Source of the DNA: Naegleria gruberi
Taxonomy: Eukaryota
DNA: 64,000 nt
Assembly: GCA_000004985.1 (NCBI GenBank)
Contig: GG738890.1
Reading direction: 5' to 3' (one strand)
Of this stretch, positions 43,476 to 60,246 are shown in pieces (position 1 is the stretch's first letter; the number at the start of each line of letters is the position of its first letter). Under the pieces are notes generated by a model that saw only the letters and a program-made list of their open reading frames with translations, made no database searches and was not told the origin of the DNA. The translations under genes and the position numbers were made by a program.

Positions 43476-43595
43476 GGCTACGGCCATATCACGATGAATG
43501 CACCTCATCCCGTCCGATTTGAGAAGTTAAGCATCGTCGAGCCACATCAGTACTGAGGTTGGAGACAACTTGGGAACCTGTGGTGCTGTAGTCTT
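43476..43595 (+). rRNA. 5S rRNA gene, copy 1
   Basis: GGCTACGGCCATATCAC...CCGTCCGATTTGAGAAGTTAAGCATCG...GTACTGAGGTTGGAGACAACTTGGGAACCTGTGGTGCTGTAGTC followed by TTTTT. Matches eukaryotic 5S helices I-V. 120 nt. Confidence 0.9.
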
Positions 43596-44284: not shown

Positions 44285-44500
44285 CTACCACTTTTTGAAT
44301 TGTTTGTTTCTCATTTCTAAGGTGTTATGTGATTGAGATTTGAAAGTTTTGCTTGTTTCACTTCCAATAGAATTCAATGTTTTGTAATCAATTAAATTTC
44401 TTCTTCTTGTTCCACCAACAATATTATCCAGAGAAATTTCGGAATTAAATTGTGAAGTATTATTGGAGGAATTATACATATTTCTTCTTGTTGAGACCAT
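44285..44500 (-). CDS. Small hypothetical protein, 71 aa; paralog of 44728..45027
   Basis: Shares ...DNIVGGTRRRNLIDYKTLNS... with its neighbour's ...SNIISGTRHRNNIDYHHANLNG... Confidence 0.4.
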   Translation of the reverse strand: MVSTRRNMYNSSNNTSQFNSEISLDNIVGGTRRRNLIDYKTLNSIGSETSKTFKSQSHNTLEMRNKQFKKW

Positions 44501-44727
44501 TTTCTAATTGTTATTTTGTTATTTTCTTTTGTTGTTGATTTTCATTAAATTTCCTTTCATCAAAATATTAATAGAAAAATTCAAATTCTTGTGATGAGTG
44601 GAAAATCCACCAAAAATTGGAATCACAAAATTAGTGGAAATCATCATGGAAATAAATAGATAATTGATCGGATGATGAAATTTCCACAACAAAACAAAAT
44701 AACAAAATAACAAAAACTAAGAGCAAA

Positions 44728-45027
44728 ATGCCAGCTAGAAATACCTCATCAAATACTTCTTCATCTTCCGAAGGTAGAATTCCAACAAAAACAGAATGGA
44801 CAAGATCTAAACCAATTGATTTATCTAAAAGATTACCATTATTTGATATTGATACTTCAAATATTATAAGTGGAACAAGACATCGTAATAATATTGATTA
44901 TCATCATGCAAATTTAAATGGTAAACAAATTTCAGTGAAAAGATCTTCGAAAAATTCAATTGAAAAGAGAGCTAAACAACAATCGAACACCACTAATAAG
45001 AAGATTACCAAATCGAAAAAGATGTAA
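44728..45027 (+). CDS. Small basic hypothetical protein, 99 aa; paralog of 44285..44500, divergently transcribed
   Basis: Shared motif I(V/I)(G/S)GTR(R/H)RN.IDY. The two genes flank a 227-bp intergenic region. Confidence 0.4.
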   Translation: MPARNTSSNTSSSSEGRIPTKTEWTRSKPIDLSKRLPLFDIDTSNIISGTRHRNNIDYHHANLNGKQISVKRSSKNSIEKRAKQQSNTTNKKITKSKKM

Positions 45028-45528
45028 ATTACAACTTGTAATAAATTCAGTAAATTGTAAATAAAATGTTTGAAATATAGATGAAGTTTCAATTTAGAAT
45101 TGATCAGAATATGAGAAACCAAAATTTGCATCAAGCAATTTAACATGACAAATGTTCAATAAGTATGAGGTTGATCAACCTTTACACTTTCTCCAACAAA
45201 CCTGAACAAACAAGATTCGTCCAAGAACTCTTGAATTCGCTGTTCATGCAGTCAAAGACTGTAGCGGGATTGTCGCCATATTCCTGGCAGGCTTCCCGTC
45301 CATTGCAACCAATAGAATATCATGTTTTTCCCATCTCTCAATATTTACAAATTCTTCAATGCTTGAACATACTGGACAACTAGAAACCGACCTATTGCCC
45401 ACTCACCCAAGAAAATCGTGATTTGAAAGGTTCCTTCATTTTTATTTAATAAGTGAAATGGCCTAATTGACTAAACTTGAAATTAATCAGAATTTTCTTT
45501 GTGATCATGGTGAACTGAATTGAAACAA

Positions 45529-45910
45529 CTGACTCATCTCTGCATTTCTAATAATAATATTAGCGAAACTGGTGCAAAATATGTTGCTGAATTGAAATAA
45601 GTAATTCATTCTTGTTGAACTGAACAAGTTGACCAATCTCAGTATTTGCAACAATAACATTAGTTCCAAGGGAGGTAAATTTATTAATGAGATGAGTCAA
45701 TTATTTTGATATTAGTAGAAATGGTGTTGAATTTCTCAATTTTAATGAACTAGAACAATTGGAGCACCTTAACATTTCTTGGAATTATATTGGTGATGAA
45801 GGCATTTGCTATAAGCAAAATGAAACATTTACTTTTTCTCGGTGTAAGGGTACCTCTATTCTCTTTCGAATGGAATGTATTATTATAGTAAAATTCCAAA
45901 CAACCTTGAA
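45529..45910 (+). pseudogene. Decayed ribonuclease-inhibitor-type LRR gene fragment
   Basis: Three consecutive LRR units (LTHLCISNNNISETGAKYVAELK; NKLTNLSICNNNISSKGGKFINEMSQLF; LEQLEHLNISWNYIGDEGICY) sit in three different frames, each ended by a stop. Confidence 0.3.
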
Positions 45911-45941
45911 AATCTAGTAAATTTGGTAAATGTAAAATGGA

Positions 45942-46014
45942 TACAGCGAGCGGGGCTTGAACCCGCGACCTTAAGCGTGTTAGGCTTACGATCTAACCAA
46001 CTGATCTATCGCTG
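45942..46014 (-). tRNA. tRNA-Val (anticodon AAC)
   Basis: Acceptor GCAGCGA/TCGCTGT (G1-U72 wobble), D-arm GATC-AGTTGGTTA-GATC, anticodon stem TAAGC/GCTTA, loop CTAACAC, T-arm GCGGG-TTCAAGC-CCCGC. 73 nt. Confidence 0.85.
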
Positions 46015-46193
46015 CTTACACTCAGTACAATAATTACCTTAATGAAATACGAGTTACAAATGTGGCAAGAAACAAGCTTAGTTGTAAATGTTGTTAGTAG
46101 CCTCTCCAGTTTTACAATCAAATACTAAACAGAGGATGATTCAACACGAAAATCTCAAAATATATTTATTAGTACTTGAAGCAAACCGTTTTT

Positions 46194-47465
46194 TTAACAG
46201 ATCAATAAATTAAGCAAGACGAGCAAAGCAAGTAAAGCAACAGAAACTACATATCTATCAGATTCACTTCTTACATTATATGAAGTATCAGTTGCAATAT
46301 CACTATTGTCATATCTCAATATCATTTCATTATATCTTGATTTTCCAAGGTTAAGTTTGAGTGTACATTGAACACTACTTGATCCCAAAGCGAGAATTGG
46401 TTGTTCACACAACACAGTTCCACTACTGCTGTAGAATGACAACTTTTTAATATCAATACCAGGTGTCACTTCATATTGTCCATTGAAAAGTGTGAATGAA
46501 ATCTTGAACGGAGTATTCTCTGAGATATCTTTTTGTACGGTGATAGTGCCTCTCTCAATAGTAAATGTGGAAAGTGAAAAACTTGGGAGTGGAATATTAG
46601 GAACGTCTTGATCAGCACTCGTTAATGCTGAGAATTTAATAGAATATGGTTTACCAGAACTCATTGTTGGAGTGAATTTGAGAATGGTAGATCCTCCAAC
46701 AATATCATGATAAGTTTGGTAATCTCCAAAAGTGCCACCTTCAAAACTGATTTCACCCTTTTGCAAAGTGTCCAATTCGTTGAACTGATCTAACAATCTG
46801 ACTTCAAAACTAATCTCCTGACCATAGAAGAAATATGGTACGTGCTTCATGGCTAGATTAGTTGGAAAGGCACCAATTGCAAATTTGGTAAATTTTGGCC
46901 TCACACAAGACATTTGAATGTTGAATCTCAATGAAGTACTGGCACGTGTTTGAGCAATCAAATATGCCTTGCCTGGAACTTTTGATGGAAATCGAACACC
47001 TTCGGTAGGATTCGATGTACAGGTAAGAAAATTTGAATTGTAGGACTTCAAGCCATTGAAAGAAAATCCTTGGTTGGCCATGGCCTTATTCTTGTTTTCT
47101 TCATCAACGAGATAGTAGACGAATCCAGTTGTTTGTGAGGTGGATTGAATATTGACTAAACTAATGGAAGGTACTTGATTGGAAATGGAGCAACTTTCCA
47201 TTGACGAAAGGACAACCCAACCATCGGCAGCCTTTGGACAAGCTTGTCCATTGCAGCCACAAGCAGGGCATGTACACTGTTGAACATCTCTTTCTTGAGA
47301 AATTGTTGGTGAGAAAAAAGTTTCATTAGAAACCTGATGAAAGGAAGTTTTTTCAAGTAAATTTGTTGGTACTTGGAAGGAAATTTCAAACTCGTTTGCA
47401 GCAATAATTTGTGCAACTAGCAGCAAAAGAAACGCAAATGTCAACAACTTCATTTTTTTTAACAA
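46194..47465 (-). CDS. Secreted Cys-rich type I membrane protein
   Basis: Signal peptide MKLLTFAFLLLLVAQIIAANE, CTCPACGCNGQACPK cluster, C-terminal TM YVVSVALLALLVLLNLLIC. Confidence 0.6.
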   Translation of the reverse strand: MLKKMKLLTFAFLLLLVAQIIAANEFEISFQVPTNLLEKTSFHQVSNETFFSPTISQERDVQQCTCPACGCNGQACPKAADGWVVLSSMESCSISNQVPSISLVNIQSTSQTTGFVYYLVDEENKNKAMANQGFSFNGLKSYNSNFLTCTSNPTEGVRFPSKVPGKAYLIAQTRASTSLRFNIQMSCVRPKFTKFAIGAFPTNLAMKHVPYFFYGQEISFEVRLLDQFNELDTLQKGEISFEGGTFGDYQTYHDIVGGSTILKFTPTMSSGKPYSIKFSALTSADQDVPNIPLPSFSLSTFTIERGTITVQKDISENTPFKISFTLFNGQYEVTPGIDIKKLSFYSSSGTVLCEQPILALGSSSVQCTLKLNLGKSRYNEMILRYDNSDIATDTSYNVRSESDRYVVSVALLALLVLLNLLIC

Positions 47466-48111
47466 GCACCAATCGTCTAGTTTTTACAAAGGGCAATGAA
47501 TCTCATCAATCTGTCAATTGTTAGGAAAGACGTCAATTACTATTACTGGGACAAATAAAGCTTAATAGAAATACCTTACTATTTTTGTTTTTTTGAAAAG
47601 CACCGAACAGGCAAGTACGTGACTGCTTTGATGTAAAAAAACAAATGGCAAGTAAGTTGAATAACAAATTTAGTGCAACTATTTGATGGCCATCAGTTGT
47701 TTAATTGGTGAGCAACTGACAGGTTGAATTGGTCCTCCAAAAAGTCAAATTATCGATGAAATGTGAATCTCATAAGTTGTTAAACAACCAAAAAAAATTA
47801 AACAACTTGCCATAATGTTCTTGCACTAGCTAATAATATACAAGAGAGAGGCAACTCCTTCAACTTTGATGGTAGTTAACGTAATTCGATGATAAACAAT
47901 GCATGTGCTTCTAGAAATATTTAGTCCACATGCTACAATGGTTATTTTGTCATTGAAATTACTTGTATCAGTCTTGAAGTTCAACAGTTCTCCTTATTCC
48001 TTTTTTTTAAATATATTGATATGCAAAGATTTTGGAACTTGGAATTTAAAGTTAACATTTGCACTAATTAAATTAAATTTAACAAAGAAAAAACAAAACT
48101 AAACTTAAACA

Positions 48112-48675
48112 ATGGGAAACACTAATCGTTGGAAAATGGAAGAACCACAGCACCTGGCACCTGTTGTCACAAATGTTCAACGAAAAAGGGAATTAGGTGG
48201 AGTGATCAACTTGTCAGAATTCAAGGAATTGCCAATGGAAATTCAGCTACATACACTTACCTTTCTTCCAATGCAAAGTTTGACTGATTTATTACTGGTA
48301 TCCAAATTTATGAATGAACAATTATTGAAATATGATGAAATTTATCGAGTTTTTTATTCTGATTTCAGAAAACGTGCGGTGCAAGAAAAACTTGATTGGA
48401 ATACAAGGAGTTATTATCCTTTTAATCACAATTACATACATTATTATCCTCCTATTATACCTGTTTCTCTGCCAACAACAATTATACCAACAACTAGTGT
48501 GATTGAAGAACAATTTGACAGAGATCTACCTCTAAAACTGGAAACTCTTGTAGAGAGTCATCTTTTAGAGAGTGCCTATCAACAATTGAGTTATGTTGCC
48601 AACACACATATTCAAAACAGGATGAATCAAAAAGTGATGATAGAAGAAATGAGTAATATGACCCAATCTGCATAA
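48112..48675 (+). CDS. F-box-like protein (N-terminal MGN...)
   Basis: LPMEIQLHTLTFLPMQSLTDLLLVSKFMNEQL. Confidence 0.5.
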   Translation: MGNTNRWKMEEPQHLAPVVTNVQRKRELGGVINLSEFKELPMEIQLHTLTFLPMQSLTDLLLVSKFMNEQLLKYDEIYRVFYSDFRKRAVQEKLDWNTRSYYPFNHNYIHYYPPIIPVSLPTTIIPTTSVIEEQFDRDLPLKLETLVESHLLESAYQQLSYVANTHIQNRMNQKVMIEEMSNMTQSA

Positions 48676-48730
48676 TAAATAGTCATTCTATCTTATTATT
48701 TAAAAATTTAAAAGAACAGAGTAATGAAAA

Positions 48731-49759
48731 TTACCAATATCTACTTCTTGTCTCCTGTGTGGGCAATACCTTCCTCAACACAAATAATGAATATAGGAAA
48801 GGGAATTCCAATTTTTCAATAGAATCAAACTTGCTACTGAGCTCGAAATATTGAACTCTGCAATCAATCAAATCTATTCCTCCGTACAAGTAGAATTCTG
48901 GTATTATTTCTTCCAAATATTGAGTTATCATACTGTTGGTCACCTTTTTTTCCTTGTCACTCTTCATACCTACCAATCCAAGAAATCGATTCTTATCCAA
49001 TAGATATTCGTATAAATTCTTTTCTGCTTTCACCTTTTCAAAATAACTTATCATTTGTTTACAAATGTTAAATGATTCAATTGAGGAAACATCAAAACAA
49101 TAGAACAAAATGTTACACTGTTGCATTTGTCCTACGTTATATGGCACAAATCGATTTATGCCAGGAATCTTAATTAATTCAAGGTTATAATGTTCCGAGT
49201 AATCAAATCTAGTGGTCAGATAGTTAATTTGATTACTGAATCTTTTTATCCAAGTTGACTTTCCACAAGATCCGTATCCAGCAATTCCAATTTTAGGTTG
49301 TTTTTGTTCTCCCACTACCAACTGTCCACTTTTAATGGCTCCTCTGATTCTAGGAACAAGATTGTCATGAAAATGAACTAGGGCACTATGTACATTCAAT
49401 CTCATTGGTTTCAGTAGGCAATTTGGTTGTTTCCCTCTATTTTCTAACTGATCCTTCCACAAGAGTGGTTGAAATATCCAGTATTTAGCAAAATTCTTAC
49501 TCACTCTCATCAATTTGATAATATCTGAATTTGGCAAATATCTCATCACATTAATGACCAATTCATACGGTAGCATTCTCTCCATCAATGATTGATTATT
49601 TTCATTAAATACATTAGGATCATTTCTATCTAAATATTCACTCTCTTGATCCATTAATTCCAACTCTTCATAATCAATTTCGATCGGAATGATCTTCTCC
49701 AAATTTAAATCATCAAGAATGATTCTATTACTGGAAAGAGTTGTGTGTTGTTGACCCAT
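48731..49759 (-). CDS. F-box-like + P-loop small-GTPase-like fusion protein (N-terminal MGQ...)
   Basis: LPYELVINVMRYLPNSDIIKLMRVSKNF (F-box) followed by KIGIAGYGSCGKSTWI (G1 P-loop) and LVGMKSDK (G4-like). Confidence 0.55.
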   Translation of the reverse strand: MGQQHTTLSSNRIILDDLNLEKIIPIEIDYEELELMDQESEYLDRNDPNVFNENNQSLMERMLPYELVINVMRYLPNSDIIKLMRVSKNFAKYWIFQPLLWKDQLENRGKQPNCLLKPMRLNVHSALVHFHDNLVPRIRGAIKSGQLVVGEQKQPKIGIAGYGSCGKSTWIKRFSNQINYLTTRFDYSEHYNLELIKIPGINRFVPYNVGQMQQCNILFYCFDVSSIESFNICKQMISYFEKVKAEKNLYEYLLDKNRFLGLVGMKSDKEKKVTNSMITQYLEEIIPEFYLYGGIDLIDCRVQYFELSSKFDSIEKLEFPFLYSLFVLRKVLPTQETRSRYW

Positions 49760-50034
49760 TTTTTTAGTGTTGGTTGAGAGATTTGTTATTATTAGAAGAA
49801 GAATTTATATTCTTCTGTTGTGTGGATTAAAATGGTGAGAAGGTTAATTTGAGAGATTCTAATCTTGTTCCATTTTTTTTAATATTTAATTTTATTAAAT
49901 ATTATTTATAAGATTAAAAATGGAAGGATAAACCAAAATGTCTTCATAAGTCTCTTAAAAATACAAGATTCAAGAGGTTTTAGTGGGATTAATGTATTTT
50001 ATGAATTTTAAAGTGGAAGATAGATTAATGTGTC

Positions 50035-50160
50035 GGGGTCTTGGCGCAGTCGGTATTATTAATAGATTTTAGGGTAGGTAACGCTCTCAATCTACCTCAA
50101 CGTCGGTAGCGCGTAGGTCTCATAATCCTAAGGTCGTGAGTTCGATCCTCACAGACCCCA
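50035..50160 (+). tRNA. tRNA-Met(CAT) copy interrupted by a 53-nt insertion in the D-loop (50054..50106); probable pseudogene or non-canonical intron
   Basis: Apart from the insertion it is identical in arm structure to the copies at 9666 and 57622, and the acceptor GGGGTCT/AGACCCC equals copy 3. The insert is flanked by a duplicated GTCGG(TA) and contains a 5-6 bp hairpin (GGTAG...CTACC). Confidence 0.6.
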
Positions 50161-50320
50161 ACTTTTGCCCTTTCTTTTGCTTATTTTGCATCCTATCGAA
50201 CGATCATCACCATAGTTTGATCACCAATATCTTTACAAGCAAAGGGAGCAATTTCTAGCTGGTTTGTTTTGCTTGTGGTTAACGTTGATATTACAGTTGA
50301 GTAACAAACATAAAATAAAA

Positions 50321-52378
50321 ATGCTCAACAATGTTCATCATGTCGATCATCAAATATTGAACGAAATGGATGACTACTTTTCAAGAAGGAACAAACTCTT
50401 TGATCAATTCAAAGAAAAACGAAGAAGAGAATTGGGAAATAAAATCGGGAAGGAAATTACCATCACAATAGATAAAGATGTAGTGAAGGGGAAAGCCTTT
50501 GAAACGAGCCCATACAAAATAGCATCCGATCTTTCCAATGATCAATCTATGGATCATCTTATTGCCAAGATTAATGGTAAATTATGGGACATGAATAGAG
50601 AGTTGGAAGGAGATGGTCGATTGGAATTTTGTTCTGATTGGAATGATTTGGAGGTGAGGAGAGTTTTCAAGCGTAGTTCTGCATTTGTGTTGGGAGCAGC
50701 TGTGGAACAAGTATTCAAATGTTTGGTCAGTGGTGGAGCTGTACTTGAGGATGATTATGGCAAGGGAGGTTTCTTTTATGAGAATTTTATGGATGAAGTA
50801 GTTAGAAATAGCTCTATAAATGATCATTCGAAAATCAAGAAAGAAATAGAGAAGATCATTGAAGAAAAACACCCATTCGAAAGATTAATTGTGAGGAAAT
50901 ATGAAGCTCTTGAATTATTTGCAGGAAACAAATTCAAAATTGAGCTCTTGAATGAAAAGTTTAAAGATGACGATTTCCTTTGCGTTTATCGTTGTGGATG
51001 CTTCATAGATACCTCTGTCGGCCCACATTTGTTGCACACTGGACAAATAGCATCTTTTGAAATTATATCAAATACTCGATTTCTATCTGATACAAAGAGG
51101 GAAATTTTACGGTTTTATGGAATTTCGTTTCCAACTGTTCAATTAAAGGAAGAATGGAAAATAATGACCCAAAAACTCAAACTTTGTGACCACAAAAAGG
51201 TTGGAAAGGATCAAGAGCTGTGGTTCTTTCATCCACATGCCCCTGGAATGGTTTCACTCCTTCCTCACGGCAAGAGAATATGCAATTCTGTTCAATCTCA
51301 ATTACGAGAAGCTTATTGGAGGTATGGATTTGCAGAGGTTCAAAGCCCCATTGTTTTGAATAAGGATCTGTGGTATTATCAATCAGGTAGTAGGAATCAG
51401 TGGTGGCAACAATACAATTTCGCTCTGGAAATTGATAAGGAGTACTATATACTCAAACCATACAACAAACCTATTCACTGTATTATGTATCGGAACAAAT
51501 CCAGATCTTATAGAGATCTACCAATTAGATATGTAGAATTTGGCTCAGTATTTCCGGATAACATCAAACCTTTTAGGCTGAATGGCAGGTTGAGAAGTTT
51601 CCAAAAAGATGAGTCAACCATTTTTTGCCAGTCAGACCAAACCAAAAAGGAAGTATTGAATTGTCTTCAAATGATGGGAAGTGTATATAACAAATTTGGA
51701 TTTGAATTCAAGATTGTATTTTCCACAAAACCTGTTAGTTTTTATGGTGACAATCTGGAATGGATCAAGTTGGAAGGTATATTGGAAACTGCCCTAAAAT
51801 CATTGGGTCATGAATGGGAAAGAGACGAAGGAGGGGCTCCTTCTCTCGGTCCAAGAATTGAGTTTTATGTTTCAGATAATTTGAAGAGGTTTATTTACCT
51901 TTGTGGAATAATTCAAATGGACTTAATGACACCACGTTTTTTCAATTTGACTTATACCAGTTCAGACAATTCTGCAGAATCAAAACCCATCTGCATCAGC
52001 AGTACCATCTTGAATAACACTGAAACTTTCATGGCTTTATCTGCTGAACGTTATGGTGGAAAGTGGCCTTTTTGGCTTTCTCCTAGACAAGCTATCATCA
52101 TTCCAATTTGTGAAAAGTGTAGTGAATATGCTAACAATGTTAAAGATAGAATTCATCAGGCTGGATACTATGTGGACGTGGATATGAGCTTTCATACGAT
52201 AGAAAAAAAGATTAGGAATGCTCATTTAGCTCAGTATAATTATATTTTAATAATTGGCGTCAGTGAGATGGAAACTGATTGCGTGAATGTAAGAATAAGA
52301 GATGGCGAACAAGAAGGAGTTAAATCTATTCAAGAATTATTGGAAGAATTCGAAGTTAAAATTAGGGAATTTAAATAA
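50321..52378 (+). CDS. Threonyl-tRNA synthetase (class II), possibly organellar
   Basis: TGS-like N-terminus. HKKVGKDQELWFFHPHAPGMV, FRLNGRLRSFQKDESTIFC and the anticodon-binding domain WPFWLSPRQAIIIPI match ThrRS motifs. The track start is TTG; the true start is the aaaaATG at 50321. Confidence 0.75.
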   Translation: MLNNVHHVDHQILNEMDDYFSRRNKLFDQFKEKRRRELGNKIGKEITITIDKDVVKGKAFETSPYKIASDLSNDQSMDHLIAKINGKLWDMNRELEGDGRLEFCSDWNDLEVRRVFKRSSAFVLGAAVEQVFKCLVSGGAVLEDDYGKGGFFYENFMDEVVRNSSINDHSKIKKEIEKIIEEKHPFERLIVRKYEALELFAGNKFKIELLNEKFKDDDFLCVYRCGCFIDTSVGPHLLHTGQIASFEIISNTRFLSDTKREILRFYGISFPTVQLKEEWKIMTQKLKLCDHKKVGKDQELWFFHPHAPGMVSLLPHGKRICNSVQSQLREAYWRYGFAEVQSPIVLNKDLWYYQSGSRNQWWQQYNFALEIDKEYYILKPYNKPIHCIMYRNKSRSYRDLPIRYVEFGSVFPDNIKPFRLNGRLRSFQKDESTIFCQSDQTKKEVLNCLQMMGSVYNKFGFEFKIVFSTKPVSFYGDNLEWIKLEGILETALKSLGHEWERDEGGAPSLGPRIEFYVSDNLKRFIYLCGIIQMDLMTPRFFNLTYTSSDNSAESKPICISSTILNNTETFMALSAERYGGKWPFWLSPRQAIIIPICEKCSEYANNVKDRIHQAGYYVDVDMSFHTIEKKIRNAHLAQYNYILIIGVSEMETDCVNVRIRDGEQEGVKSIQELLEEFEVKIREFK

Positions 52379-52398
52379 CTCTCACAGAAAGCTATTAC

Positions 52399-53664
52399 TT
52401 ATTGAAAAGAATGAAAATCTTGATAACATGCACTAGATTCAAGAATTTCTACTTGGTTAATCACTTGATCAATTGCTCCCTTGAGTGGTTGTGACTTTTC
52501 CACGAAAAGGGCAAAGTTTTTAACTGACTGATTACTGTCATTCCTATAATATTCAATCCATGCCCTTAATTTACCATTCAAAATTCCCAAATGATCAAAA
52601 GACGTAAATGGTCTTCCCCAGAATTGACAAACAATTTCATCAACGTTGAATGGTATCAAGTACTCTTCTGGAAGTTTCTTTGATTTTCTTAAATACTCAA
52701 CCAAAAAGTCATTCAAAAGTTTGATGATAATTTTGTAACAAGTTGCCATATTACCATCAACAATCTTCCACCAATTTTCTGACTGATCTAATATGGAATC
52801 ACTTGGTCGAATGGCCATTTCCAATGCTTGTTTCAACTCCTTACTCGATTCGAGCTCACTAAAAGCACTTCCAAACCATTTCGAATAAGGATAATATTTT
52901 CTTTCCAATAAGAAACACAAACACATCATTTCCCTAACTATTTTCCCAACCAGAACAAAACATCCAAGTCTATCTCCCACAACTCCACATCTTCCAACAA
53001 ATGGAGCTTCCTGTGAAATTTTGGAAAGTTGTATCATTATTTGATAAATCCAAACAATATCTGGATAGTAATTTCCAATTAACTCTCTAATAGGTTTCAG
53101 AATTCCACAATCATGATAGATTCTTCCAGCTTGTCCAATCGCCAATAATTTTTGCTGAGGAATTGACAACCAATACGTGTAATCCCCATTCAAAATTTCT
53201 ATCAACCATTTCGAATAACTAGTTCCATCATTATTCGTTCGTTTGAGAAGATAATTTGAAAAGTAATCTTCAATAGTTGTAATCTGAATCAGTAAATCTC
53301 CCAAATTATCATCAGATGAAGTTCTTGAATTGGGATCTTCTTGATATCTCATCCGACATGGAATTCCTTCAAAAATTGAAGGAACCTTCTCATCTAATTC
53401 CATCTTGATTTTATCTGAAAATTCTTCATACTCATCGGTAAGGAATAAAATAACTCTCGGAGCAAAATCATGATCTCTGCTCATCTCTGTATCAAATCCC
53501 AACACTTCACTACCATAACCAATTAAGGCAGCTGAATGATTTTCATTGAAATTGCCAAAATCACTCTTGTAGAGAATATTAGTAACGATTTGATGATAAA
53601 ATCTCTCGCATAAATCCAAACCTTTCATGGAGCGAACGTTTTCAGACATTTTTTTAAATTGCAT
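52399..53664 (-). CDS. Nucleotidyltransferase-fold protein (DUF4037-like)
   Basis: IGYGSEVLGFDTEMSRDHDF matches the GS-x(9-13)-DxD polymerase-beta NTase signature, with a helical domain after it. The family is otherwise mainly bacterial. Confidence 0.5.
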   Translation of the reverse strand: MQFKKMSENVRSMKGLDLCERFYHQIVTNILYKSDFGNFNENHSAALIGYGSEVLGFDTEMSRDHDFAPRVILFLTDEYEEFSDKIKMELDEKVPSIFEGIPCRMRYQEDPNSRTSSDDNLGDLLIQITTIEDYFSNYLLKRTNNDGTSYSKWLIEILNGDYTYWLSIPQQKLLAIGQAGRIYHDCGILKPIRELIGNYYPDIVWIYQIMIQLSKISQEAPFVGRCGVVGDRLGCFVLVGKIVREMMCLCFLLERKYYPYSKWFGSAFSELESSKELKQALEMAIRPSDSILDQSENWWKIVDGNMATCYKIIIKLLNDFLVEYLRKSKKLPEEYLIPFNVDEIVCQFWGRPFTSFDHLGILNGKLRAWIEYYRNDSNQSVKNFALFVEKSQPLKGAIDQVINQVEILESSACYQDFHSFQ

Positions 53665-53909
53665 TTTACAATGAAACAGTTTTCAATTCTAGATTTTAAC
53701 TTGATATCACATTGTGATGAGACAAATTTCAAAGATCAAATTCAATATTAAATAACCCATGCATAAGATCGAAACCTGGCTTTGCTAGACATTTTTTTAG
53801 AAATGGTACAAAATGCATGTGTTTATTTCAATTCCAACTTAATGTTGTTAGAATAACTGTTTATGAAGATCGATAGATCTGTCAAATGTTTGGAGTTTTG
53901 AACTGTTCT

Positions 53910-55173
53910 TTAATAAACAGCTTCTCCAGCATAAACTTGATTCTCAATTCCACCCTCTCCTTGAGCAATTTTGAAATATCCAGACATTCCCCAATTTGGA
54001 CCCCATGAATTGGCAGCTAACCAATAATTAGAACCTCCCTCAACTCCAAATCCAATTAAGGCAACAGCATGTCCACCAAGAACTGTGTTTTCAATGTGTT
54101 TATAGACACCAGACTTGTAACTATAGAAAAACAAAATTAGAATATTTGAAAAACTATAATTCAACTCACCCTGTAAGATCCCTGTAGACTGTGAAACCAG
54201 CTTGTACGCTGCCATATGTCATGATTGCAGTCTTGATATTATTGATACCTGAAATATAAACAGTATTTTTGGCCTTATACTTGCTCATGGACATGGAAGC
54301 AATCTTGCATTGAGTTGGACAAGTTCCAGAGGAGAAGGTTCCTCTTCCACTAGCATATGGAATACAACTGTCAAGTGGTGTTCCAGTATTTTCCAAAAAT
54401 GTCCAAGAATATTTCAAATAACCTCCTTGACAGGCCTTATTCATTGTATCGCATTGAACTTGATATTCTGGTGAGAGGACAACATTGGTTTGACCATTGG
54501 TGGCAATGCACAATCTATGAGCCAATACATAATTTGCAGCTATTAGTTTTAAAAATTACCAAAAAGGAAATTTAAAATGTTGAAATTATAAAAAGTAGAG
54601 AAATTAATAAATGAAATTGTAAAACTTAAAAAACTTACAGAAAGCCCAACAAGCACCACATGTTTGTTGATCTCTAATTGCTGGAACGCATCCTTTCCAT
54701 TGAGTTCTTGCATCGAAATTCATTGGAATATCAATTCTTGTTTCAATATTTGCCATTCTTGGAGTGTCTTCATCAGAGCTCATCAATGAAAGACCAAATA
54801 GATTATCTCTAAGTTGTGAAATGGTCATATTATCAAATCTAGAGTATTCAGTTGCCTTCCATCCATGAGTATGATTGGAATTAATTCTATCAATCAAAGA
54901 TTTGTCATTGACAGGAGTGTTGGCATGAGTGTGATTAGCAATTGGATGAGTTGGATGAACAGGATGAGTGCTATTGTGCTTTGGTGGCATTGGTTTCTTA
55001 TTGTTTCCTTTGGAAAGTTCAATTGGAGTGACCATTGTCAACATGAAGGTGAATAATACGAAACAGACAATGCAACTGAGAACAAGGAATGTATTAGAAG
55101 ACTTTCTTCTAGTAGTAGCAAATGATTTGTTTGAATTGTTATTCATTTTGTTTTTTGTTATTGATTCAAACAT
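53910..55173 (-). CDS. Cathepsin B-like cysteine protease with an N-terminal signal-anchor, 3 exons (55173..~54639, 54539..54170, 54120..53910; introns GTAAGT...AATAG of ~99 nt and GTGAGT...CTATAG of 49 nt)
   Basis: [10 protein letters not shown] (catalytic Cys), ...[13 protein letters not shown]...GGY, occluding-loop region, [11 protein letters not shown] (catalytic His), [14 protein letters not shown]. Exon junctions restore CWAF|S|ANYVL and RDLTG|YKSGVY. The printed sequence and ORF track differ by 1 nt near 54600, so junctions are +/-1. Confidence 0.75.
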
Positions 55174-55802
55174 TCACACTTTGCATTCCACTATTTATTC
55201 GAAACCTAAAAGACCGCAAGAGATAATGAAAATAATAATGAAAATACCCCTCATTACCCAAGAGCAGGTATTATTGTTCCTAATGGGAATGGTTTTCTCT
55301 TAAACTTGTTGTTGGAAACTCTTCAAGTTGCGAAGAGATAATGTTTCGTCCCAAATTGTTCATCAGATAACATTCCAATAAAGAAAACCATTTTCCAAAT
55401 GACAAGATTCAGATAACAAATCATTACAAATCAACAATATTCAATATAATGTTGTTAAAAAACAACTTACAATGCATCTGTGTTATCCACATTTTTTGAA
55501 AATGCAAAAAATCGAATACCAAAAAGCTTCATTTCTAGAAGAGGAAAGTGACAAATTTGTATTGTGGATTTGTTGTCCAATAGCATCCAATTTTTTTTTT
55601 ATTAATTGAGAATAGCCGATTGAGTATCTTATCTAATGAAATTGTAAGGGAAAATCAATGAAGGAGAATATGCACCAACTTGATTCAATCTCTTTAATTT
55701 AATCTTGATTTTATCTAAATTGCAAACTCTCAATGATATTTTCAAATTGTTCCAAGGTTCAGTAATTAATATAGGATTTATTAGAATGAATTCCATTACT
55801 AT

Positions 55803-56441
55803 TTATTGTTGTCCTGAAACAGCTTTCCATGCAGGTCTTGTTGAAATCTTTTCCCACCAAGCTTTAACAAGTGGACGATCCAACAATAAATTACCCAATC
55901 CAATAGCGAACAACAAGTTTCCATATGGTAAGTGATACAAATCGGCTAAGGTGAATTGATTTCCACCAATGAATTCTTGTTTAGCCAACACTCTTTCATA
56001 GGCATCCAAATTGAGTGCTAACTTTTCACTCAATTGTTTGACACGAGTTTCATCTGCAGCTCCATATCCCATCATGCCCTTAAATAACTTTTCGAAAACT
56101 AAACCAGAGGCATTTGAATCAAAGTAAGCAGTCTCAATGGAAGCACCTTGTTCGAATAGACCCAAAGCTTTGAGCTCGGTTGGAATGAGTTCAGTTCCTT
56201 GGCTCTTATGTTTGGCTTCCAAGTAACGACAGATGGCACGAGATTCATAGATCAAGAAACCATCATCTTCCAAGACTGGAATGACACCAAATGGATGTTT
56301 TTCCAAGTAGGATGGTGACTTGTGTTCGCCCTTCATTAAATCAACAGGAACAAGCTCATATTCCAAACCTTTCTCCTTAATTGTGGTCAAAACACGTTGA
56401 ACACAAGTAGATTGAGCAGCACCATAAATTTTGTAGACCAT
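55803..56441 (-). CDS. Glutathione S-transferase
   Basis: N-terminal thioredoxin-like domain with ESRAICRYL and a C-terminal helical domain. 212 aa. Confidence 0.85.
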   Translation of the reverse strand: MVYKIYGAAQSTCVQRVLTTIKEKGLEYELVPVDLMKGEHKSPSYLEKHPFGVIPVLEDDGFLIYESRAICRYLEAKHKSQGTELIPTELKALGLFEQGASIETAYFDSNASGLVFEKLFKGMMGYGAADETRVKQLSEKLALNLDAYERVLAKQEFIGGNQFTLADLYHLPYGNLLFAIGLGNLLLDRPLVKAWWEKISTRPAWKAVSGQQ

Positions 56442-56675
56442 TTTGTTATTTGTTAATAGTATATAATACAGTTAAGTTGTTTTTTTGTGATTGAAAATGC
56501 ATAATCGTTAGTGTGCCATTTATGGTGGATTCTGTACCGAAACCAAAGCGCTGCCGTGAGCACTAATTATTGATCTGTGGAATTTGCGCAAGAAATGGTT
56601 GCCATTTCATCCTCTTGGAAACTTCACAATCTGTCATTAAGAGAATGATTTTATGTATTTCAAAGCATTGCAATT

Positions 56676-56726
56676 TCAGAAATTTCAGGTGAAGTGATTA
56701 ATATTTCACAATTTAAGAAAGAGAAT
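56676..56726 (+). promoter_or_regulatory. Conserved 5S upstream element, copy 2
   Basis: ttcagaaatttcaggtgaagtgattaatatttcacaatttaagaaagagaatgg. Confidence 0.35.
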
Positions 56727-56846
56727 GGCTACGGCCATATCACGATGAATGCACCTCATCCCGTCCGATTTGAGAAGTTAAGCATCGTCGAGCCACATCA
56801 GTACTGAGGTTGGAGACAACTTGGGAACCTGTGGTGCTGTAGTCTT
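56727..56846 (+). rRNA. 5S rRNA gene, copy 2
   Basis: Identical to 43476..43595 over 120 nt, followed by TTTT. Confidence 0.9.
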
Positions 56847-57011
56847 TTACTTATCAATATTGCTTATTGGTCAATCGTCCAGTTGCTTCTCTCATTCTTT
56901 CCATTATTCCAAACAAAGTGTTAACCACTGATAAAACTGCTCCATCATCAATAATGATCAATTAAGATTTGCTACATGTTCAAAATAAATGACATTATTA
57001 TTTATTAAAAT

Positions 57012-57019
57012 ACCACAAA
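57012..57019 (+). promoter_or_regulatory. DUSE-like motif about 70 nt upstream of U2
   Basis: TACCACAAA, compared with the dictyostelid upstream sequence element [AT]CCCA[CT]AA, which sits about 60 nt upstream of ncRNA genes. One mismatch. Confidence 0.3.
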
Positions 57020-57087
57020 CATTTTGCCATTCTTCACTCTAGAACAAACAGAATAAAAACAATGTTCCTTATGCAATTCTGAAAACC

Positions 57088-57274
57088 ATCTTTCTCGGCC
57101 AATTGGCTTTGATCGAGTGTAGTATCTGTTCTTTTCAGTTTAATAGCTGAAAGCAGCCCACGGGTTGCATTACTATTAACTCAATTTTTTGTAGGGATCA
57201 GGGTTTGAGCTTGATTGCTCACTTTGATTGGTTTCAATCAGACATTGCACAAACCGTCAGATTAGGAGCCACCC
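57088..57274 (+). ncRNA. U2 spliceosomal snRNA
   Basis: AUCUUUCUCGGCCAAUUGGCUUUGAUCGAGUGUAGUAUCUGUUCUUUUCAGUUUAAUAGCUGA... aligns to metazoan U2 (AUCGCUUCUCGGCCUUUUGGCUAAGAUCAAGUGUAGUAUCUGUUCUUAUCAGUUUAAUAUCUGA), including the branch-point-pairing GUAGUA. Sm site AAUUUUUUGUAGG. 3' end ...GGAGCCACCC. 187 nt. Confidence 0.85.
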
Positions 57275-57621
57275 AACTCTTTTAATTAATTGAAAAATCA
57301 TTGAACAAAGACAATCTCAATCAGAGTAAAATTGAGCTTTTTACAAATTCCGAGCATGTATGATGACGAAGATATAGTAAGCATGCTGAGGGACTCAAAA
57401 CAGTCATTGATTGGTGTTGATATTGAACAATTTCTTGTCGACATTTGAATGCAGTTGGCAAGTGCGAAAAGGAAAATGAGAAGTGGAACGATTTCAAGAA
57501 TGAATTATTTGATTAATTGAAAGTAGAAACAATTAGGAAATTGATGTTGTTTTTTGTTCTCCTTCATAACATAACTATTGGGATTAGCAACACTTAAAAG
57601 CTATTGAGAGGATGCAAAAGT

Positions 57622-57694
57622 TGGGGTCTGTGAGGATCGAACTCACGACCTTAGGATTATGAGACCTACGCGCTACCGACTGCGCCAAGACCCC
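57622..57694 (-). tRNA. tRNA-Met (anticodon CAT), elongator type
   Basis: Reverse complement gives GGGGTCT-TG-GCGC-AGTCGGTA-GCGC-G-TAGGT-CTCATAA-TCCTA-AGGTC-GTGAG-TTCGATC-CTCAC-AGACCCC-A. Confidence 0.9.
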
Positions 57695-57797
57695 GACACA
57701 TTATAAACCTTTTACAGTTTCTTCATTAACCTTAACTGAGTTCCTAGGTTTACCTAATAGGAACAGTTTTCTTTTGTTCATATTCAATTCGAAAAAA

Positions 57798-58943
57798 ATG
57801 TTACAACAAACAGAAGAAACAATTGATGAAAAATTAAGATCAAATACAACAACAAATTGGAAAGACATTCCACTGGAAGTGTGGACTCATCACATTTGGT
57901 CGTTTCTTCACCTTCCAGAACTTTTTTCCATTCGTCTAGTTTCTCACGAATGGAACGATTTTTTATTGCATCACGCAAGAGATTATTTGCTTCACGTTAA
58001 ATTAAATCGGATTCATATGCCTTCTTTTTTAATTTGTTGCAAACATTTGTATTTTAATAATATTGGAAAATTGGATATGAAATTTATAGAGTACGCTCTT
58101 GAGCCGAAACATCAAAAACCACTTGACGAAACTGAAAGAAAGGAAATTGCAGAAAGTTTTAATCCCTTAGAATATTTTCCAAATCTTTCCAGTTTGAAAC
58201 TAACTCTTACTGATGTGAAATCATTGGAAACTGTTTCTCCCCAAATTGCAAATATGAAATATCTCAATGATTTGGATATTAGATCAAATTTAATGACAAA
58301 CAAGTGTTTGAATACAATTCTAACACAACCTGTAACTTTAATGAGTTTAACTAGATTGGATGTTTCTGTGAATGTGTTGGGAACATCTTGTGTCGAATTT
58401 ATCAATTCAAATCCTCATCTCTCCAATCTGAAATATCTTAATATGAGTAATAATCAGTTGCTTTTATTCCATACTAAGGTTGAGAGTGTATTCAAAGACA
58501 CTTTGGAAGAGCTCTATGTCTCTGATTGCTCCCTCAATATAGAATCTATGAAGAATATTTTGGTGAGCTATCCAAAGTTGACTACATTGGATTTTAGTTT
58601 CAACAAGCTTGAAAAAATCAAAAATTTATATCAATCTATTCAATTAGAAAACGATACAGAAAAATACTGCAAACTTATTCGATTAAACATGTCAGGATCC
58701 AAATTAAGAAATGATCAATTGGAATATATTGCCAAGATTCCAATCTTTTCAGAATTGAGAATTCTAGATTTGAGTAGAAACAGAATCAACAAATTAGGAA
58801 CTGAAAAACTAGCTGACGAATCAATTAGTGTCTTGTCCAAAGTTGAATATCTGGATTTGAGTCGTTGTGGAATTGGAAAAGAAGGTGCACAAAATATTCG
58901 ACAAAGTTCAATATTTTCCTCTCTAAAATTATTAATTGAATAA
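57798..58943 (+). CDS. F-box-like / LRR (ribonuclease-inhibitor-type) protein
   Basis: IPLEVWTHHIWSFLHLPELFSIRLVSHEWNDF, then LRRs (LDLSRNRINKLGTEKL...LDLSRCGIGKEGAQNI). The track start is TTG; the true start is the aaaaaaATG at 57798. Confidence 0.6.
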   Translation: MLQQTEETIDEKLRSNTTTNWKDIPLEVWTHHIWSFLHLPELFSIRLVSHEWNDFLLHHARDYLLHVKLNRIHMPSFLICCKHLYFNNIGKLDMKFIEYALEPKHQKPLDETERKEIAESFNPLEYFPNLSSLKLTLTDVKSLETVSPQIANMKYLNDLDIRSNLMTNKCLNTILTQPVTLMSLTRLDVSVNVLGTSCVEFINSNPHLSNLKYLNMSNNQLLLFHTKVESVFKDTLEELYVSDCSLNIESMKNILVSYPKLTTLDFSFNKLEKIKNLYQSIQLENDTEKYCKLIRLNMSGSKLRNDQLEYIAKIPIFSELRILDLSRNRINKLGTEKLADESISVLSKVEYLDLSRCGIGKEGAQNIRQSSIFSSLKLLIE

Positions 58944-59043
58944 ACACTCATTATTCTAATACTTTGAAAAAGATGAATTTGATCAAGTGGGAGTTGTTAA
59001 CTTTTTGTAAACTGTCAATAACAAACAAGCAACGTTTAAAAAA

Positions 59044-60246
59044 ATGCAACAACAAGATGATATGGAACCCTTCGCTTCCGAACGTAAAGAAAAACTCCTC
59101 TCTGAATCACTCTACGATGTCGAACAATGGGCAAATGAATTAATTGATCCGAATACTCAAAAACGATTGACTCCGAGAACTTTCTTCTTGGATCTTTCCA
59201 TAGAGGAAGGTACTGCAATTTATCATACATTTCAGCAGTTTGTTCTTCATCATCGGAATAAATTTACTTCCACTGATGAGAAGGCTATGAAAAATTTGGA
59301 AGGAAGAATTGCTGATTTTCTGAAGGAACATTTTGATGGAAAGAGAGTGTTTTGTAGATTGTCAACGAGAAGTCCGAAAGATGCTAGTTTGTTCGAAGGT
59401 TCTCATTCGTATGAGGTAACTAAGGAAATTATGAGAAAGCAATGGATTAGGAATTTTTATTTGAATAGAAGGAAAACAATGAAAGAGGATCAATCCTTTG
59501 TTTATACGAATGAGGTTGAAGATTTTGAAAATTATGTAAAGAATGAAATGAAATACTATGAGGAGTATTTGATTTTTATGAAAGCATCTCAACAATCTCT
59601 ATCAGTTTCGAATGAAAAGGAAGTTTTGGATGTATTAACTCATTCTGAGAGAGTACTCAGAGATTTGGTGAGAGCATTGGATTTTCCATCAGTGTACAAT
59701 ATGAAGTTAATTTTTAGAGAGTGGTGTCCAGAGCTGTCTTACGAATATGAATTTAGAGGATTTATTCACGATTTTGAATTGATGGGTTTAACACAATACG
59801 ATAATTCATTCAAAATTGATGATTTGATTAATAATAAGGATGAAATTGCTCAATCAATATTGAATTACTACAATACCACTGTTAAGCCATTATTAATATC
59901 CAAATCCAATGACCCCAATTCTGCAATTTCAAAGTGGAATGGAAGAGTGATTATGGATTTTGCCATTCTACAACCAAGTAAGGAAGTTATCATTGTTGAA
60001 TGTAATCCATTCAATGATGGAACAGGCGCATCACTATTCGAGGTTGACAGATCCTTAATTGTTGAAAATTACTCAAAAACTAATCAATTAGATTTTAGAG
60101 TTGTAACAAATGAGTTGTACAATGAAATTCTCTCTCATGGCACTCATGTTTGGGAGAGTATCTTCTCCTCAACAAGAGAGCAAATATTGAAAGAAACCAA
60201 ACAACAAGCTCAACAACCATCCTCCTTCTTATGTAACATTTTATAA
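59044..60246 (+). CDS. cdc123: Cell division cycle protein 123 (D123 family)
   Basis: RLSTRSPKDA (vs KLNWSAPRDA), REWCPELSYEYEFRGFIHDFELMGLTQYD (vs [28 protein letters not shown]), IMDFAILQPSKEVIIVECNPF. Confidence 0.8.
   Translation: MQQQDDMEPFASERKEKLLSESLYDVEQWANELIDPNTQKRLTPRTFFLDLSIEEGTAIYHTFQQFVLHHRNKFTSTDEKAMKNLEGRIADFLKEHFDGKRVFCRLSTRSPKDASLFEGSHSYEVTKEIMRKQWIRNFYLNRRKTMKEDQSFVYTNEVEDFENYVKNEMKYYEEYLIFMKASQQSLSVSNEKEVLDVLTHSERVLRDLVRALDFPSVYNMKLIFREWCPELSYEYEFRGFIHDFELMGLTQYDNSFKIDDLINNKDEIAQSILNYYNTTVKPLLISKSNDPNSAISKWNGRVIMDFAILQPSKEVIIVECNPFNDGTGASLFEVDRSLIVENYSKTNQLDFRVVTNELYNEILSHGTHVWESIFSSTREQILKETKQQAQQPSSFLCNIL

Follow-up and report, generated by a model that had tools for sequence, protein, structure and literature searches.

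Linkage of 5S rRNA, tRNA and snRNA genes has been documented in several Discoba. In Leishmania, tRNA genes form clusters with 5S and U1 or U3 genes (PMC2695483). The mixed clusters of Leishmania major, in which U5 is found as well, contain dispersed 5S genes closely associated with tRNA and snRNA genes. These genes are located on either strand, the clusters are situated between protein-coding units, and the spacers have a mean length of 202 bp (PMC2695483). In Diplonema papillatum, 5S and U2 are direct neighbours within an SL RNA-5S-U2 unit, which comprises the spliced-leader RNA gene and is arrayed in tandem with up to 27 repeats (PMC10161547). In Euglena, U3-tRNA and U3-U5 linkages are known (PMC2784804). 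[quoted passage not shown] For Naegleria, a literature search yielded no description of a 5S or snRNA gene linkage.

Here, a 64-kb stretch of DNA (the window) was analysed. Very probably, the region between positions 56727 and 57694 contains three housekeeping RNA genes of the Naegleria gruberi nuclear genome, which form a small cluster and are transcribed independently (Table 1). The sequences of the neighbouring ThrRS, GST and D123 proteins agree with those of N. gruberi at 100% of positions, and about 33% of the DNA is GC. As the genome has been public since 2010, annotating conserved RNA genes such as these is routine. The cluster belongs to the kind of fluid 5S/tRNA/snRNA linkage already documented in other Discoba and adds a heterolobosean example to it: In Discoba, 5S, tRNA and snRNA genes tend to travel together and to mark synteny breakpoints. 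As in L. major, dispersed 5S genes are found in tight clusters with tRNA or snRNA genes, both strands are used, and the clusters lie between protein-coding units. With two to three genes, the Naegleria clusters are smaller than those of Leishmania, and their spacers are longer (242-346 bp). As in Diplonema, 5S and U2 are directly adjacent. In contrast to Diplonema, the Naegleria unit is single, has unique flanks, lacks an SL RNA gene and includes tRNA-Met as third member. That snRNA genes are tightly linked to Pol III genes is also reminiscent of a related lineage, namely the tRNA-dependent snRNA and U3 promoters of trypanosomatids (PMC2784804).

Table 1. Small-RNA genes, associated sequence elements and spacers in the window
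Feature	Position	Strand	Basis
5S rRNA gene, second copy, identical to the copy at 56727-56845	43476-43594	+	Rfam, 105.4 bits
U1 3' box CTCTGTTAAATAATAGAAACATTAT	43801-43825	-	In-register match to U2 flank
U1 snRNA gene	43826-43998	-	Rfam RF00003 below threshold, U1 hallmarks
TGATTAATA box, -32 to -24 of 5S gene	56695-56703	+	Comparison of both copies and N. fowleri
5S rRNA gene	56727-56845	+	Rfam RF00001
T4 run, presumed Pol III terminator of 5S gene	56845-56848	+	Read from sequence
5S-U2 spacer, unique sequence	56849-57087	+	No repeat, transposable-element or protein signal
ACCACAA (-76)	57012-57018	+	Upstream of U2
TAAAA (-34)	57054-57058	+	Upstream of U2
TGTTCC (-25)	57063-57068	+	Upstream of U2
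U2 spliceosomal snRNA gene	about 57088-57276 (Rfam span 57086-57276)	+	Rfam RF00004
U2 3' flanking box CTCTTTTAATTAATTGAAAAATCAT	57277-57301	+	In-register match to U1 flank
U2 to tRNA-Met spacer, no recognisable feature	57302-57615		blastn, tblastn and Pfam negative
T4 run, presumed Pol III terminator of tRNA-Met	57616-57619	-	Read from sequence
Elongator tRNA-Met(CAU) gene	57622-57694	-	Rfam, 69.2 bits; ARAGORN

The initial annotation had placed a 5S, a U2 and a tRNA-Met gene within less than 1 kb, and all three identities were confirmed by Rfam and ARAGORN. Using Rfam cmscan with gathering thresholds (GA), 105.4 bits were obtained for 5S (GA 38, E = 4e-22, model positions 1-120 of 120) and 120.6 bits for U2 (GA 46, E = 7e-24, model positions 1-192 of 192). 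Both genes are thus full length and score above their thresholds, and 5S is followed by a T run, its presumed terminator. The coordinates proposed for 5S and tRNA-Met proved to be exact, and the proposed U2 span (57088-57274) deviates by at most 2 nt from the Rfam span at either end. U2 carries the branch-point recognition sequence GUAGUA (57119-57124). The Sm site AAUUUUUUG (57183-57191) and the 3' GGAGCCACCC, both of which had been pointed out before, are present. Stem-loops I, IIa, IIb, III and IV are found in the Rfam alignment as well as in the minimum-energy fold, which has a z-score of -3.7. The third gene was identified by ARAGORN as tRNA-Met with the anticodon CAT. It was inspected for the initiator signatures A1:U72, A54/A60 and three G:C pairs in the anticodon stem. 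Read from the sequence, it has G1:C72, a T-loop with T54-T55-C56 and the anticodon stem UAGGU/UCCUA. Since it combines G1:C72 and T54 with the lack of a G29-31:C39-41 stack, it is not an initiator tRNA. The gene is located on the minus strand, convergent with U2; its strand had not been mentioned before. Other tRNA-Met copies have the trailer ACTTTTGC / TCTTTTGC as found at the copy in the cluster.

Each of these gene calls is far beyond chance. The grouping of three small-RNA genes within 0.9 kb is in itself unremarkable in this gene-dense genome: In simulations, p amounts to 0.04 with unrestricted gene placement and to 0.43 when only intergenic space, assumed to total 16 kb, is allowed. All intact Pol III genes in the window (two 5S, two tRNA-Met and one tRNA-Val gene) have a T4-T5 run within 5 nt (5/5). 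In addition, the window holds an interrupted tRNA-Met (50035-50161) with an insert of 46 nt. The 5S gene would represent a Pol III unit composed of an internal control region, the conserved upstream TGATTAATA box and a T4 terminator. Likewise, the tRNA-Met(CAU) gene on the opposite strand would be a Pol III unit with its own T4 terminator.

The two N. gruberi 5S copies are located 13.25 kb apart. They are 98% identical over a 159-nt unit that extends from -37 to +122, and outside this unit their flanks are unrelated. The TGATTAATA box falls within the 37-nt upstream stretch (56690-56726) common to both copies. The N. fowleri 5S gene (L010, 11724-11842), which is 96% identical to the N. gruberi gene, is preceded by the identical 9-mer at the identical offset. 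In addition, the N. fowleri gene has a TTTAAG about 13 nt upstream. The TGATTAATA box is therewith a candidate for an upstream (TATA-like) promoter element and represents an upstream sequence conserved among 5S genes of Naegleria.

Both 5S genes in the window are paired with a spliceosomal snRNA gene, one with U2 at a distance of 242 nt and the other with U1 at a distance of 231 nt. Within the one 64-kb window, such pairing is not expected by chance (p of about 3e-4 to 5e-3 in simulations). U2 is arranged in tandem with its 5S gene. U1 and its 5S gene are convergent, so that the 231 nt separate their 3' ends. Because the 5S copies share only the segment from -37 to +122 and the orientations of the pairs differ, the two pairs did not originate as duplicates of a single unit. 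A tandem 5S-snRNA repeat unit of the Diplonema or metazoan type was not detected; only the 159-nt 5S unit is repeated. U1 scored 45.5 bits in Rfam, below its GA of 69.5 (E = 3e-8, model positions 1-166 of 166). Nevertheless, it is a credible U1 snRNA of N. gruberi with all hallmarks: The 5' AUACUUACCU is present, stem-loop 1 comprises 9 bp and the U1-70K-type loop GAUCAUGCAG, the loop of stem-loop 2 contains UUGCAC, and both an Sm site (AAUUUUUU) and a stem-loop 4 are found. Folded into the canonical four helices, the RNA has -40.7 kcal/mol compared to -43.7 kcal/mol for the minimum-energy fold. Upstream of U1, 286 nt of unique spacer are found. The N. gruberi U1 supplied here was apparently not recovered by a 2008 survey.

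The sequences that immediately follow the 3' ends of U1 and U2 contain a common box, with 20 of 25 positions identical in register. None of 200,000 random sequence pairs matched as well. The core CTCT[GT]TTAA[AT]TAAT occurs in 128 kb only at the U1 and U2 sites. A looser search revealed two further sites with 3 mismatches, both of which were treated as chance occurrences: 16631-16652 has no obvious adjoining ncRNA, and 49719-49740 is located inside an ORF. On the basis of two genes in one genome, the 25-nt box is a candidate snRNA 3'-end formation signal, the first one for heterolobosean snRNA genes. The U2 3' end would then be specified by an element of about 25 nt right after the coding region that is common to U1. 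Similar to the 3' boxes of Pol II-transcribed snRNA genes in animals and plants, it is a short element immediately downstream and shared by non-homologous snRNAs. The vertebrate 3' box has the consensus GTTTN0-3AAARNNAGA and the plant box CAN4-9AGTNNAA, and they are located 9-19 nt downstream. CTCTKTTAAWTAATWGAAAMAT matches neither consensus, and the Naegleria candidate box starts already 0-1 nt past the predicted 3' end. That Naegleria 5S genes are systematically paired with Pol II snRNA genes sharing a lineage-specific 3' box (CTCTKTTAAWTAATWGAAAMAT) appears unlikely. If true, the coupling between snRNA and Pol III genes known from Euglenozoa would be older than the change of kinetoplastid snRNAs to Pol III and represent an ancestral trait of Discoba. 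Furthermore, the 3' box could then help to find the remaining snRNA genes of Naegleria with poor Rfam scores.

The surroundings of the two pairs were compared with those in related genomes. CBS and D123 are direct neighbours in an environmental Naegleria-like contig as well as in N. fowleri and N. lovaniensis; here, they are 16.8 kb apart, and both 5S-snRNA clusters are located just inside the edges of this 16.8-kb block. Small-RNA genes are absent from the corresponding D123 loci, both in N. fowleri and N. lovaniensis and in two environmental contigs and Willaertia magna. The 16.8-kb block would be lineage-specific, either by insertion here or by loss elsewhere; in Willaertia, the neighbours differ. 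The 5S-snRNA pairs may have arisen by dispersal or rearrangement of short small-RNA units and would be situated at the edges of this block. The N. fowleri locus encoding the best GST homologue harbours a 5S next to a tRNA-Ser gene, without an snRNA gene, and the cathepsin encoded there is not an orthologue of the cathepsin in the window. The N. lovaniensis GST locus yielded no small-RNA gene.

Which polymerase transcribes U1 and U2 was deduced from T-runs. U2 contains an internal T4 and an internal T6 run, and U1 an internal T6 run. If T4 suffices for termination as in the neighbouring genes, these runs would terminate Pol III, so that both genes, U2 of the cluster included, are most likely transcribed by RNA polymerase II. 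The internal T6 runs distinguish U1 and U2 from the snRNA genes of trypanosomatids. A trypanosomatid-type reading, in which U1 and U2 are Pol III genes and for this reason linked with 5S, could invoke that Naegleria belongs to the Discoba as a sister to Euglenozoa, that both snRNA genes are less than 250 nt away from a 5S gene and that a T4 run follows U2. However, T4 ends every local Pol III gene, whereas U1 and U2 have T6 in their interior, and the 3' box of U1 displays a G in place of a T-run. Furthermore, the defining trypanosomatid features, a divergent tRNA gene 93-105 bp upstream with A and B boxes, were looked for at both genes: A search for B boxes with up to 2 mismatches in the 250 nt upstream of U1 and U2 was negative, and no tRNA gene is present in this interval. 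Instead, U2 has a tandem 5S gene at -242 and U1 a unique spacer. A common geometry is missing, too, as the 5S gene precedes U2 in tandem, but follows U1 in convergent orientation. Pol III transcription of the two snRNA genes is therefore considered very improbable. Functional coupling between 5S and snRNA genes, be it in a shared nuclear body or with 5S acting as chromatin boundary or enhancer, would agree with two independent pairings of similar spacing and low simulated p in a single window as well as with the 5S-U2 linkage in Diplonema. By contrast, the U1 and U2 pairs are oriented differently, and 5S of N. fowleri is located next to tRNA-Ser without an snRNA gene. In a review by Drouin and Tsang from 2012, protist 5S linkages have reportedly been found to be gained and lost repeatedly and have been judged non-adaptive. 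In summary of these points, coupling is improbable as the cause of the adjacency.

The 5S-U2 spacer must hold the U2 promoter, which would be located somewhere in these 242 nt downstream of the 5S gene. TACCACAAA occurs once on this strand (57011-57019), i.e. at -77 to -69 from A57088. Upstream of U1, the words ACCAYAA, TAAAA and TGTTCC are found in the same order as at U2, at -79, -38 and -29. ACCAYAA (-76 to -79) together with the TAAAA/TGTTCC block (-34 to -25 at U2) could be a genuine Naegleria snRNA promoter with a USE/PSE-plus-TATA architecture, analogous to the plant USE, the Dictyostelium DUSE and the SNAPc-bound metazoan PSE. Such a promoter would be compatible with a cluster of three independent genes and would merely specify the function of the spacer. 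ACCAYAA is rare (26 occurrences in 128 kb), yet it is found within 3 nt of one position at both genes (-76 at U2, -79 at U1); the three words are collinear, and the gap between ACCAYAA and TAAAA amounts to 41-42 nt in both cases. On the other hand, the motif was defined after inspection of both upstream sequences, and an unbiased comparison of the upstream regions of these two genes revealed similarity at chance level by three statistics: 94-99% of random sequence pairs share equally similar windows, the global identity has a p of about 0.41, and the collinear-word statistic a p of about 0.17. A promoter composed of these words is possible, but we lean against it, and a promoter role for TACCACAAA is unproven.

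The initial annotation had considered TACCACAAA a DUSE-like element and the whole region a dictyostelid cluster with a DUSE-driven U2 gene and a landing zone for TRE or DGLT-A retrotransposons, remnants of which were suspected in the spacers. The motif itself is present, but its identity as DUSE could not be maintained. DUSE is defined for Dictyostelia, where it is located about 60 nt upstream of the start, and conservation outside this group was not expected by the authors (PMC7919456). As DUSE, the Naegleria word is short and C/A-rich (ACCACAA compared to the CC(C)A core), is located tens of nt upstream of an snRNA gene and has a similar counterpart upstream of a second one, U1. In addition, TACCACAAA resembles the two-C form of DUSE in some dictyostelid groups (PMC7919456), and the window is AT-rich. 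However, N. gruberi (Heterolobosea, Discoba) belongs to another eukaryotic supergroup, the distance of -76 to -79 differs from about -60, and none of the four occurrences of the classical consensus [AT]CCCA[CT]AA in the window is close to U1 or U2. DUSE is defined by recurrence at a fixed distance upstream of many ncRNA genes; for the Naegleria word, recurrence at two genes is not above chance. No traces of retrotransposons were detected either. For the spacers 56846-57087 and 57277-57621, searches of the rest of the window and of 11 related loci revealed no significant match. A protein-fragment, pseudogene or repeat signal is absent from both, and their ORFs lack Pfam hits at E<=1. Among 35 scanned window ORFs of at least 150 aa, none (0/35) encodes a reverse-transcriptase, integrase or transposase domain. 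The search for transposable elements was hence negative by repeats, blastn, tblastn and Pfam, the latter applied to the spacer ORFs and the 35 window ORFs. The spacers are plain unique DNA and not debris of mobile elements. Taxonomic assignment and negative transposable-element searches refute the dictyostelid model, which retains practically no credibility. A wrong guess at the organism had thus led to the proposal of mechanisms specific to dictyostelids. For the spacer between U2 and tRNA-Met, no Rfam match was obtained at E<=1. A snoRNA candidate at 57350-57395, a hairpin resembling UGAUGA/CUGA, was rejected as too short and without Rfam support.

Finally, large sequence collections were scanned with words from these genes. 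GTDB genomes and IMG/VR yielded no match to the 5S and U2 words. In JGI metagenomes, exact matches to the Naegleria-type U2 word were found in three contigs, none of which is Naegleria-like (0/3). One of them is plant-like and carries the USE GTCCCACATCG.

The 5S rRNA, U2 snRNA and tRNA-Met genes are located where the initial annotation had placed them, as found with Rfam at gathering thresholds and ARAGORN (see table). U2 carries the GUAGUA branch-point recognition sequence, the Sm site AAUUUUUUG and the 3' GGAGCCACCC, and in its minimum-energy fold (z-score -3.7) stem-loops I, IIa, IIb, III and IV all form. The tRNA-Met has a G1:C72 pair, a T54 T-loop and an anticodon stem without G:C stack and is, therefore, an elongator and not an initiator. 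Simulations for three genes within 0.9 kb yielded p values between 0.04 and 0.43, and the grouping taken alone is unremarkable. It is an ordinary N. gruberi small-RNA gene cluster. The dictyostelid setting assumed for it had to be abandoned: The host is a heterolobosean of Discoba. The ThrRS ORF (50264-52378) is 100% identical to an N. gruberi protein (next best match Willaertia magna, 46%), and the same identity was found for D123 (59044-60246) and GST (55803-56441, - strand). In addition, the window has an average G+C content of roughly one-third and densely packed, long, mostly unbroken eukaryotic ORFs. Since the host is not a dictyostelid, two of the three interpretive claims of the initial annotation lose their basis.

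Small-RNA genes and associated sequence boxes (L010, N. fowleri locus with the GST homologue; all other positions refer to the window)
Feature	Position	Strand	Remarks
5S rRNA	56727-56845	+	Rfam 105.4 bits, full model
U2 snRNA	57086-57276	+	Rfam 120.6 bits (threshold 46), full model 1-192
tRNA-Met(CAT)	57622-57694	-	Rfam 69.2 bits; Met by ARAGORN
Second 5S rRNA	43476-43594	+	
U1 snRNA	43826-43998	-	Permissive Rfam scan, full-length; 45.5 bits, below threshold of 69.5; E 3e-8
U2 3' box CTCTTTTAATTAATTGAAAAATCAT	57277-57301	+	First 25 nt after Rfam 3' end
U1 3' box CTCTGTTAAATAATAGAAACATTAT	43825-43801	-	First 25 nt after Rfam 3' end
5S box TGATTAATA (TGATTGATA in one copy)	56695-56703, 43444-43452; L010 11692-11700		-32 to -24 of 5S
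N. fowleri 5S rRNA	L010 11724-11842		100.6 bits; beside GST homologue

The sub-threshold U1 gene displays all U1 hallmarks. It has the 5' sequence AUACUUACCU and the Sm site AAUUUUUU; stem-loop 1 consists of a perfect 9-bp stem and the loop GAUCAUGCAG, stem-loop 2 has UUGCAC in its loop, stem-loop 3 measures 9 bp, and stem-loop 4 is also present. Its canonical four-helix fold lies at most 3 kcal/mol from the MFE. N. gruberi encodes U1-70K (PMC8211703). According to a 2008 snRNA survey, U1 in N. gruberi needed unfiltered Infernal; as this survey names only two other species as rescued in this way (PMC2396436), it may have overlooked the gene. U1 is convergent with the second 5S gene, from whose 3' end it is separated by 231 nt. 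This means, a spliceosomal snRNA gene is found beside each of the window's 5S genes (2/2). In simulations, such a double pairing had a p value of 3e-4 when the genes were placed anywhere and of 5e-3 when they were limited to intergenic sequence, assumed to total 16 kb. 5S-U1 and 5S-U2 are not duplicates of one unit, because the two 5S copies share only 159 nt (-37 to +122, 98% identity) and U1 and U2 are oriented differently with respect to the adjacent 5S genes.

Aligned in register, the U1 and U2 3' boxes agree at 20 of 25 positions, and none of 200,000 random window pairs matched as well. Beyond these two sites, the core CTCT[GT]TTAA[AT]TAAT is absent from both strands of the window. Since U1 and U2 are not homologous to each other, the 25-nt box is best read as a candidate common signal for snRNA 3'-end formation. 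A weak match with three mismatches at 16631-16652 (- strand) is intergenic, with no recognisable ncRNA upstream. All five intact Pol III genes of the window (two 5S, two tRNA-Met, tRNA-Val) end with T4-T5 within 5 nt. As internal T-runs are present in both U2 (T4 and T6) and U1 (T6) and the U1 3' box is not a T-run, the sequence favours transcription of both snRNA genes by Pol II. In trypanosomatids, Pol III transcription of snRNA genes depends on the A/B boxes in a tRNA gene that is divergent and located 93-105 bp upstream (PMC2784804). A promoter of this type was rejected: Within 250 nt upstream of U1 or U2 no tRNA or B-box-like site was detected, and the two 5S-snRNA pairs have no common geometry.

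A DUSE-like motif had been proposed upstream of U2. The motif TACCACAAA is indeed present at 57011-57019 (-77 to -69 from A57088, the U2 start used here), but it is not DUSE. In dictyostelids, DUSE precedes ncRNA genes by ~60 nt and is built around a CC or CCC core; its authors did not anticipate it outside Dictyostelia (PMC7919456), and the four classical consensus sites [AT]CCCA[CT]AA in the window are not near any snRNA gene. U1, the second snRNA gene of the window, makes recurrence testable (n=2 genes). ACCAYAA is located at -76 of U2 and -79 of U1, followed in collinear order by TAAAA and TGTTCC at -34 and -25 (U2) and at -38 and -29 (U1); these words were chosen after inspecting both upstream sequences. 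Unbiased statistics for the two upstream regions are at chance: Equal similarity occurred in 94-99% of 120-nt pairs drawn at random from the window, and p was ~0.41 for best-offset global identity and ~0.17 for collinear shared words. A USE-plus-TATA promoter of Naegleria snRNA genes, distinct from DUSE, is a reasonable candidate, which we regard as somewhat less likely than not. The 5S copies of N. gruberi have 37 conserved upstream nt, beyond which identity ends abruptly. In N. fowleri, 5S is preceded by the identical TGATTAATA at the same distance and by TTTAAG near -13, within a flank that cannot otherwise be aligned. This supports a candidate TATA-like upstream promoter element in Naegleria 5S genes.

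The retrotransposon remnants suspected in the spacers 56846-57087 and 57277-57621 did not materialize. Neither spacer has significant similarity to the rest of the window or to 11 related loci, fragments of window proteins were not found in them, and their longest ORFs yielded no Pfam match even at E<=1. The repeat finder returned only 5S copies, tRNA-Met copies and coding repeats, and reverse-transcriptase, integrase or transposase domains were absent from the 35 scanned window ORFs of >=150 aa. In Naegleria, a comparison with TRE or DGLT-A consensus sequences is moot. Most direct-repeat families of the window originate from an Nsp1-like FG-nucleoporin gene (34728-36938, + strand) with many GGFNFG units.

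In three loci (L002, L003, L009; N. fowleri, N. lovaniensis and a Naegleria-like environmental contig), D123 has a CBS gene as its immediate, divergent upstream neighbour, and the CBS-domain gene at 41465-42274 (- strand) shows 88% identity to it. In the window, CBS and D123 are 16.8 kb apart (block 42275-59043). Just inside the two ends of this block lie the 5S copies, both in the same orientation, 13.25 kb apart. The left part comprises 5S-U1-tRNA-Val ~1.2 kb inside the edge, the right end, in order, GST, 5S, U2, tRNA-Met and an F-box/LRR gene abutting D123. As the corresponding loci of the other species compared contain no small-RNA genes, both clusters are lineage-specific in position, close to a synteny break. 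Willaertia, in which D123 has different neighbours, does not polarise the CBS-D123 change.

Among known systems, Leishmania major with its mixed tRNA/5S/snRNA clusters (PMC2695483) comes closest, followed by the tandem SL-5S-U2 unit of Diplonema (PMC10161547) and then by Euglena with its U3-tRNA and U3-U5 linkages (PMC2784804). Naegleria shares with these Discoba a linkage of small-RNA genes that is tight and fluid. In contrast to them, its clusters are non-tandem, lack the trypanosomatid tRNA-promoter geometry and probably combine Pol II with Pol III units. Worth a look across the whole genome are the U1 gene below threshold, the double pairing of 5S with snRNA genes, the snRNA 3' box, the 5S box and the location of the clusters at a synteny break.

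Several further observations concern the block and its surroundings. The distance between D123 and an acetyltransferase gene (4992-6131) is 53 kb in the window, compared with 3 kb in the other species. Inside the block, an interrupted third tRNA-Met (50035-50161, + strand) equals the gene at 57622-57694, and the identity extends 10 nt upstream and 8 nt downstream. Its D-loop is broken by a unique hairpin-forming 46-nt insert flanked by the 7-nt direct repeat GTCGGTA, and no second copy of the insert is present in the window. Two readings fit this copy: a disrupted pseudogene with a target-site-like duplication, or a gene with an unusual D-loop intron. ThrRS is followed by a DUF4037 protein (50264-53664 together), and the top ThrRS matches included no close homologue from N. 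fowleri or N. lovaniensis; both genes may be lineage-specific content of an inserted block. GST has three more N. gruberi paralogues (95-98% identity) on other scaffolds. Its best N. fowleri homologue (74%, L010 10001-13765) has tRNA-Ser(AGA) and 5S within 1.1 kb as well, and a DDE_Tnp_4 (Harbinger-type) transposase gene comes next. A metagenome contig (L001, ENA ERZ929261) encodes an identical GST protein with a 94% identical GST-5S spacer (window 55573-56662), which indicates a close N. gruberi relative in that metagenome; the contig stops ~60 nt short of the 5S gene. Between U1 and tRNA-Val, two small divergent genes are located, of which 44728-45027 (+ strand) has a histone-chaperone CHZ domain (Pfam) and 44285-44500 (- strand), without Pfam match, a similar GTRRRN-IDY motif by tblastn. 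Finally, 31311-31401 (- strand) is a 91-nt tRNA gene (Rfam 47.4 bits) that received no anticodon from ARAGORN and probably bears an intron.
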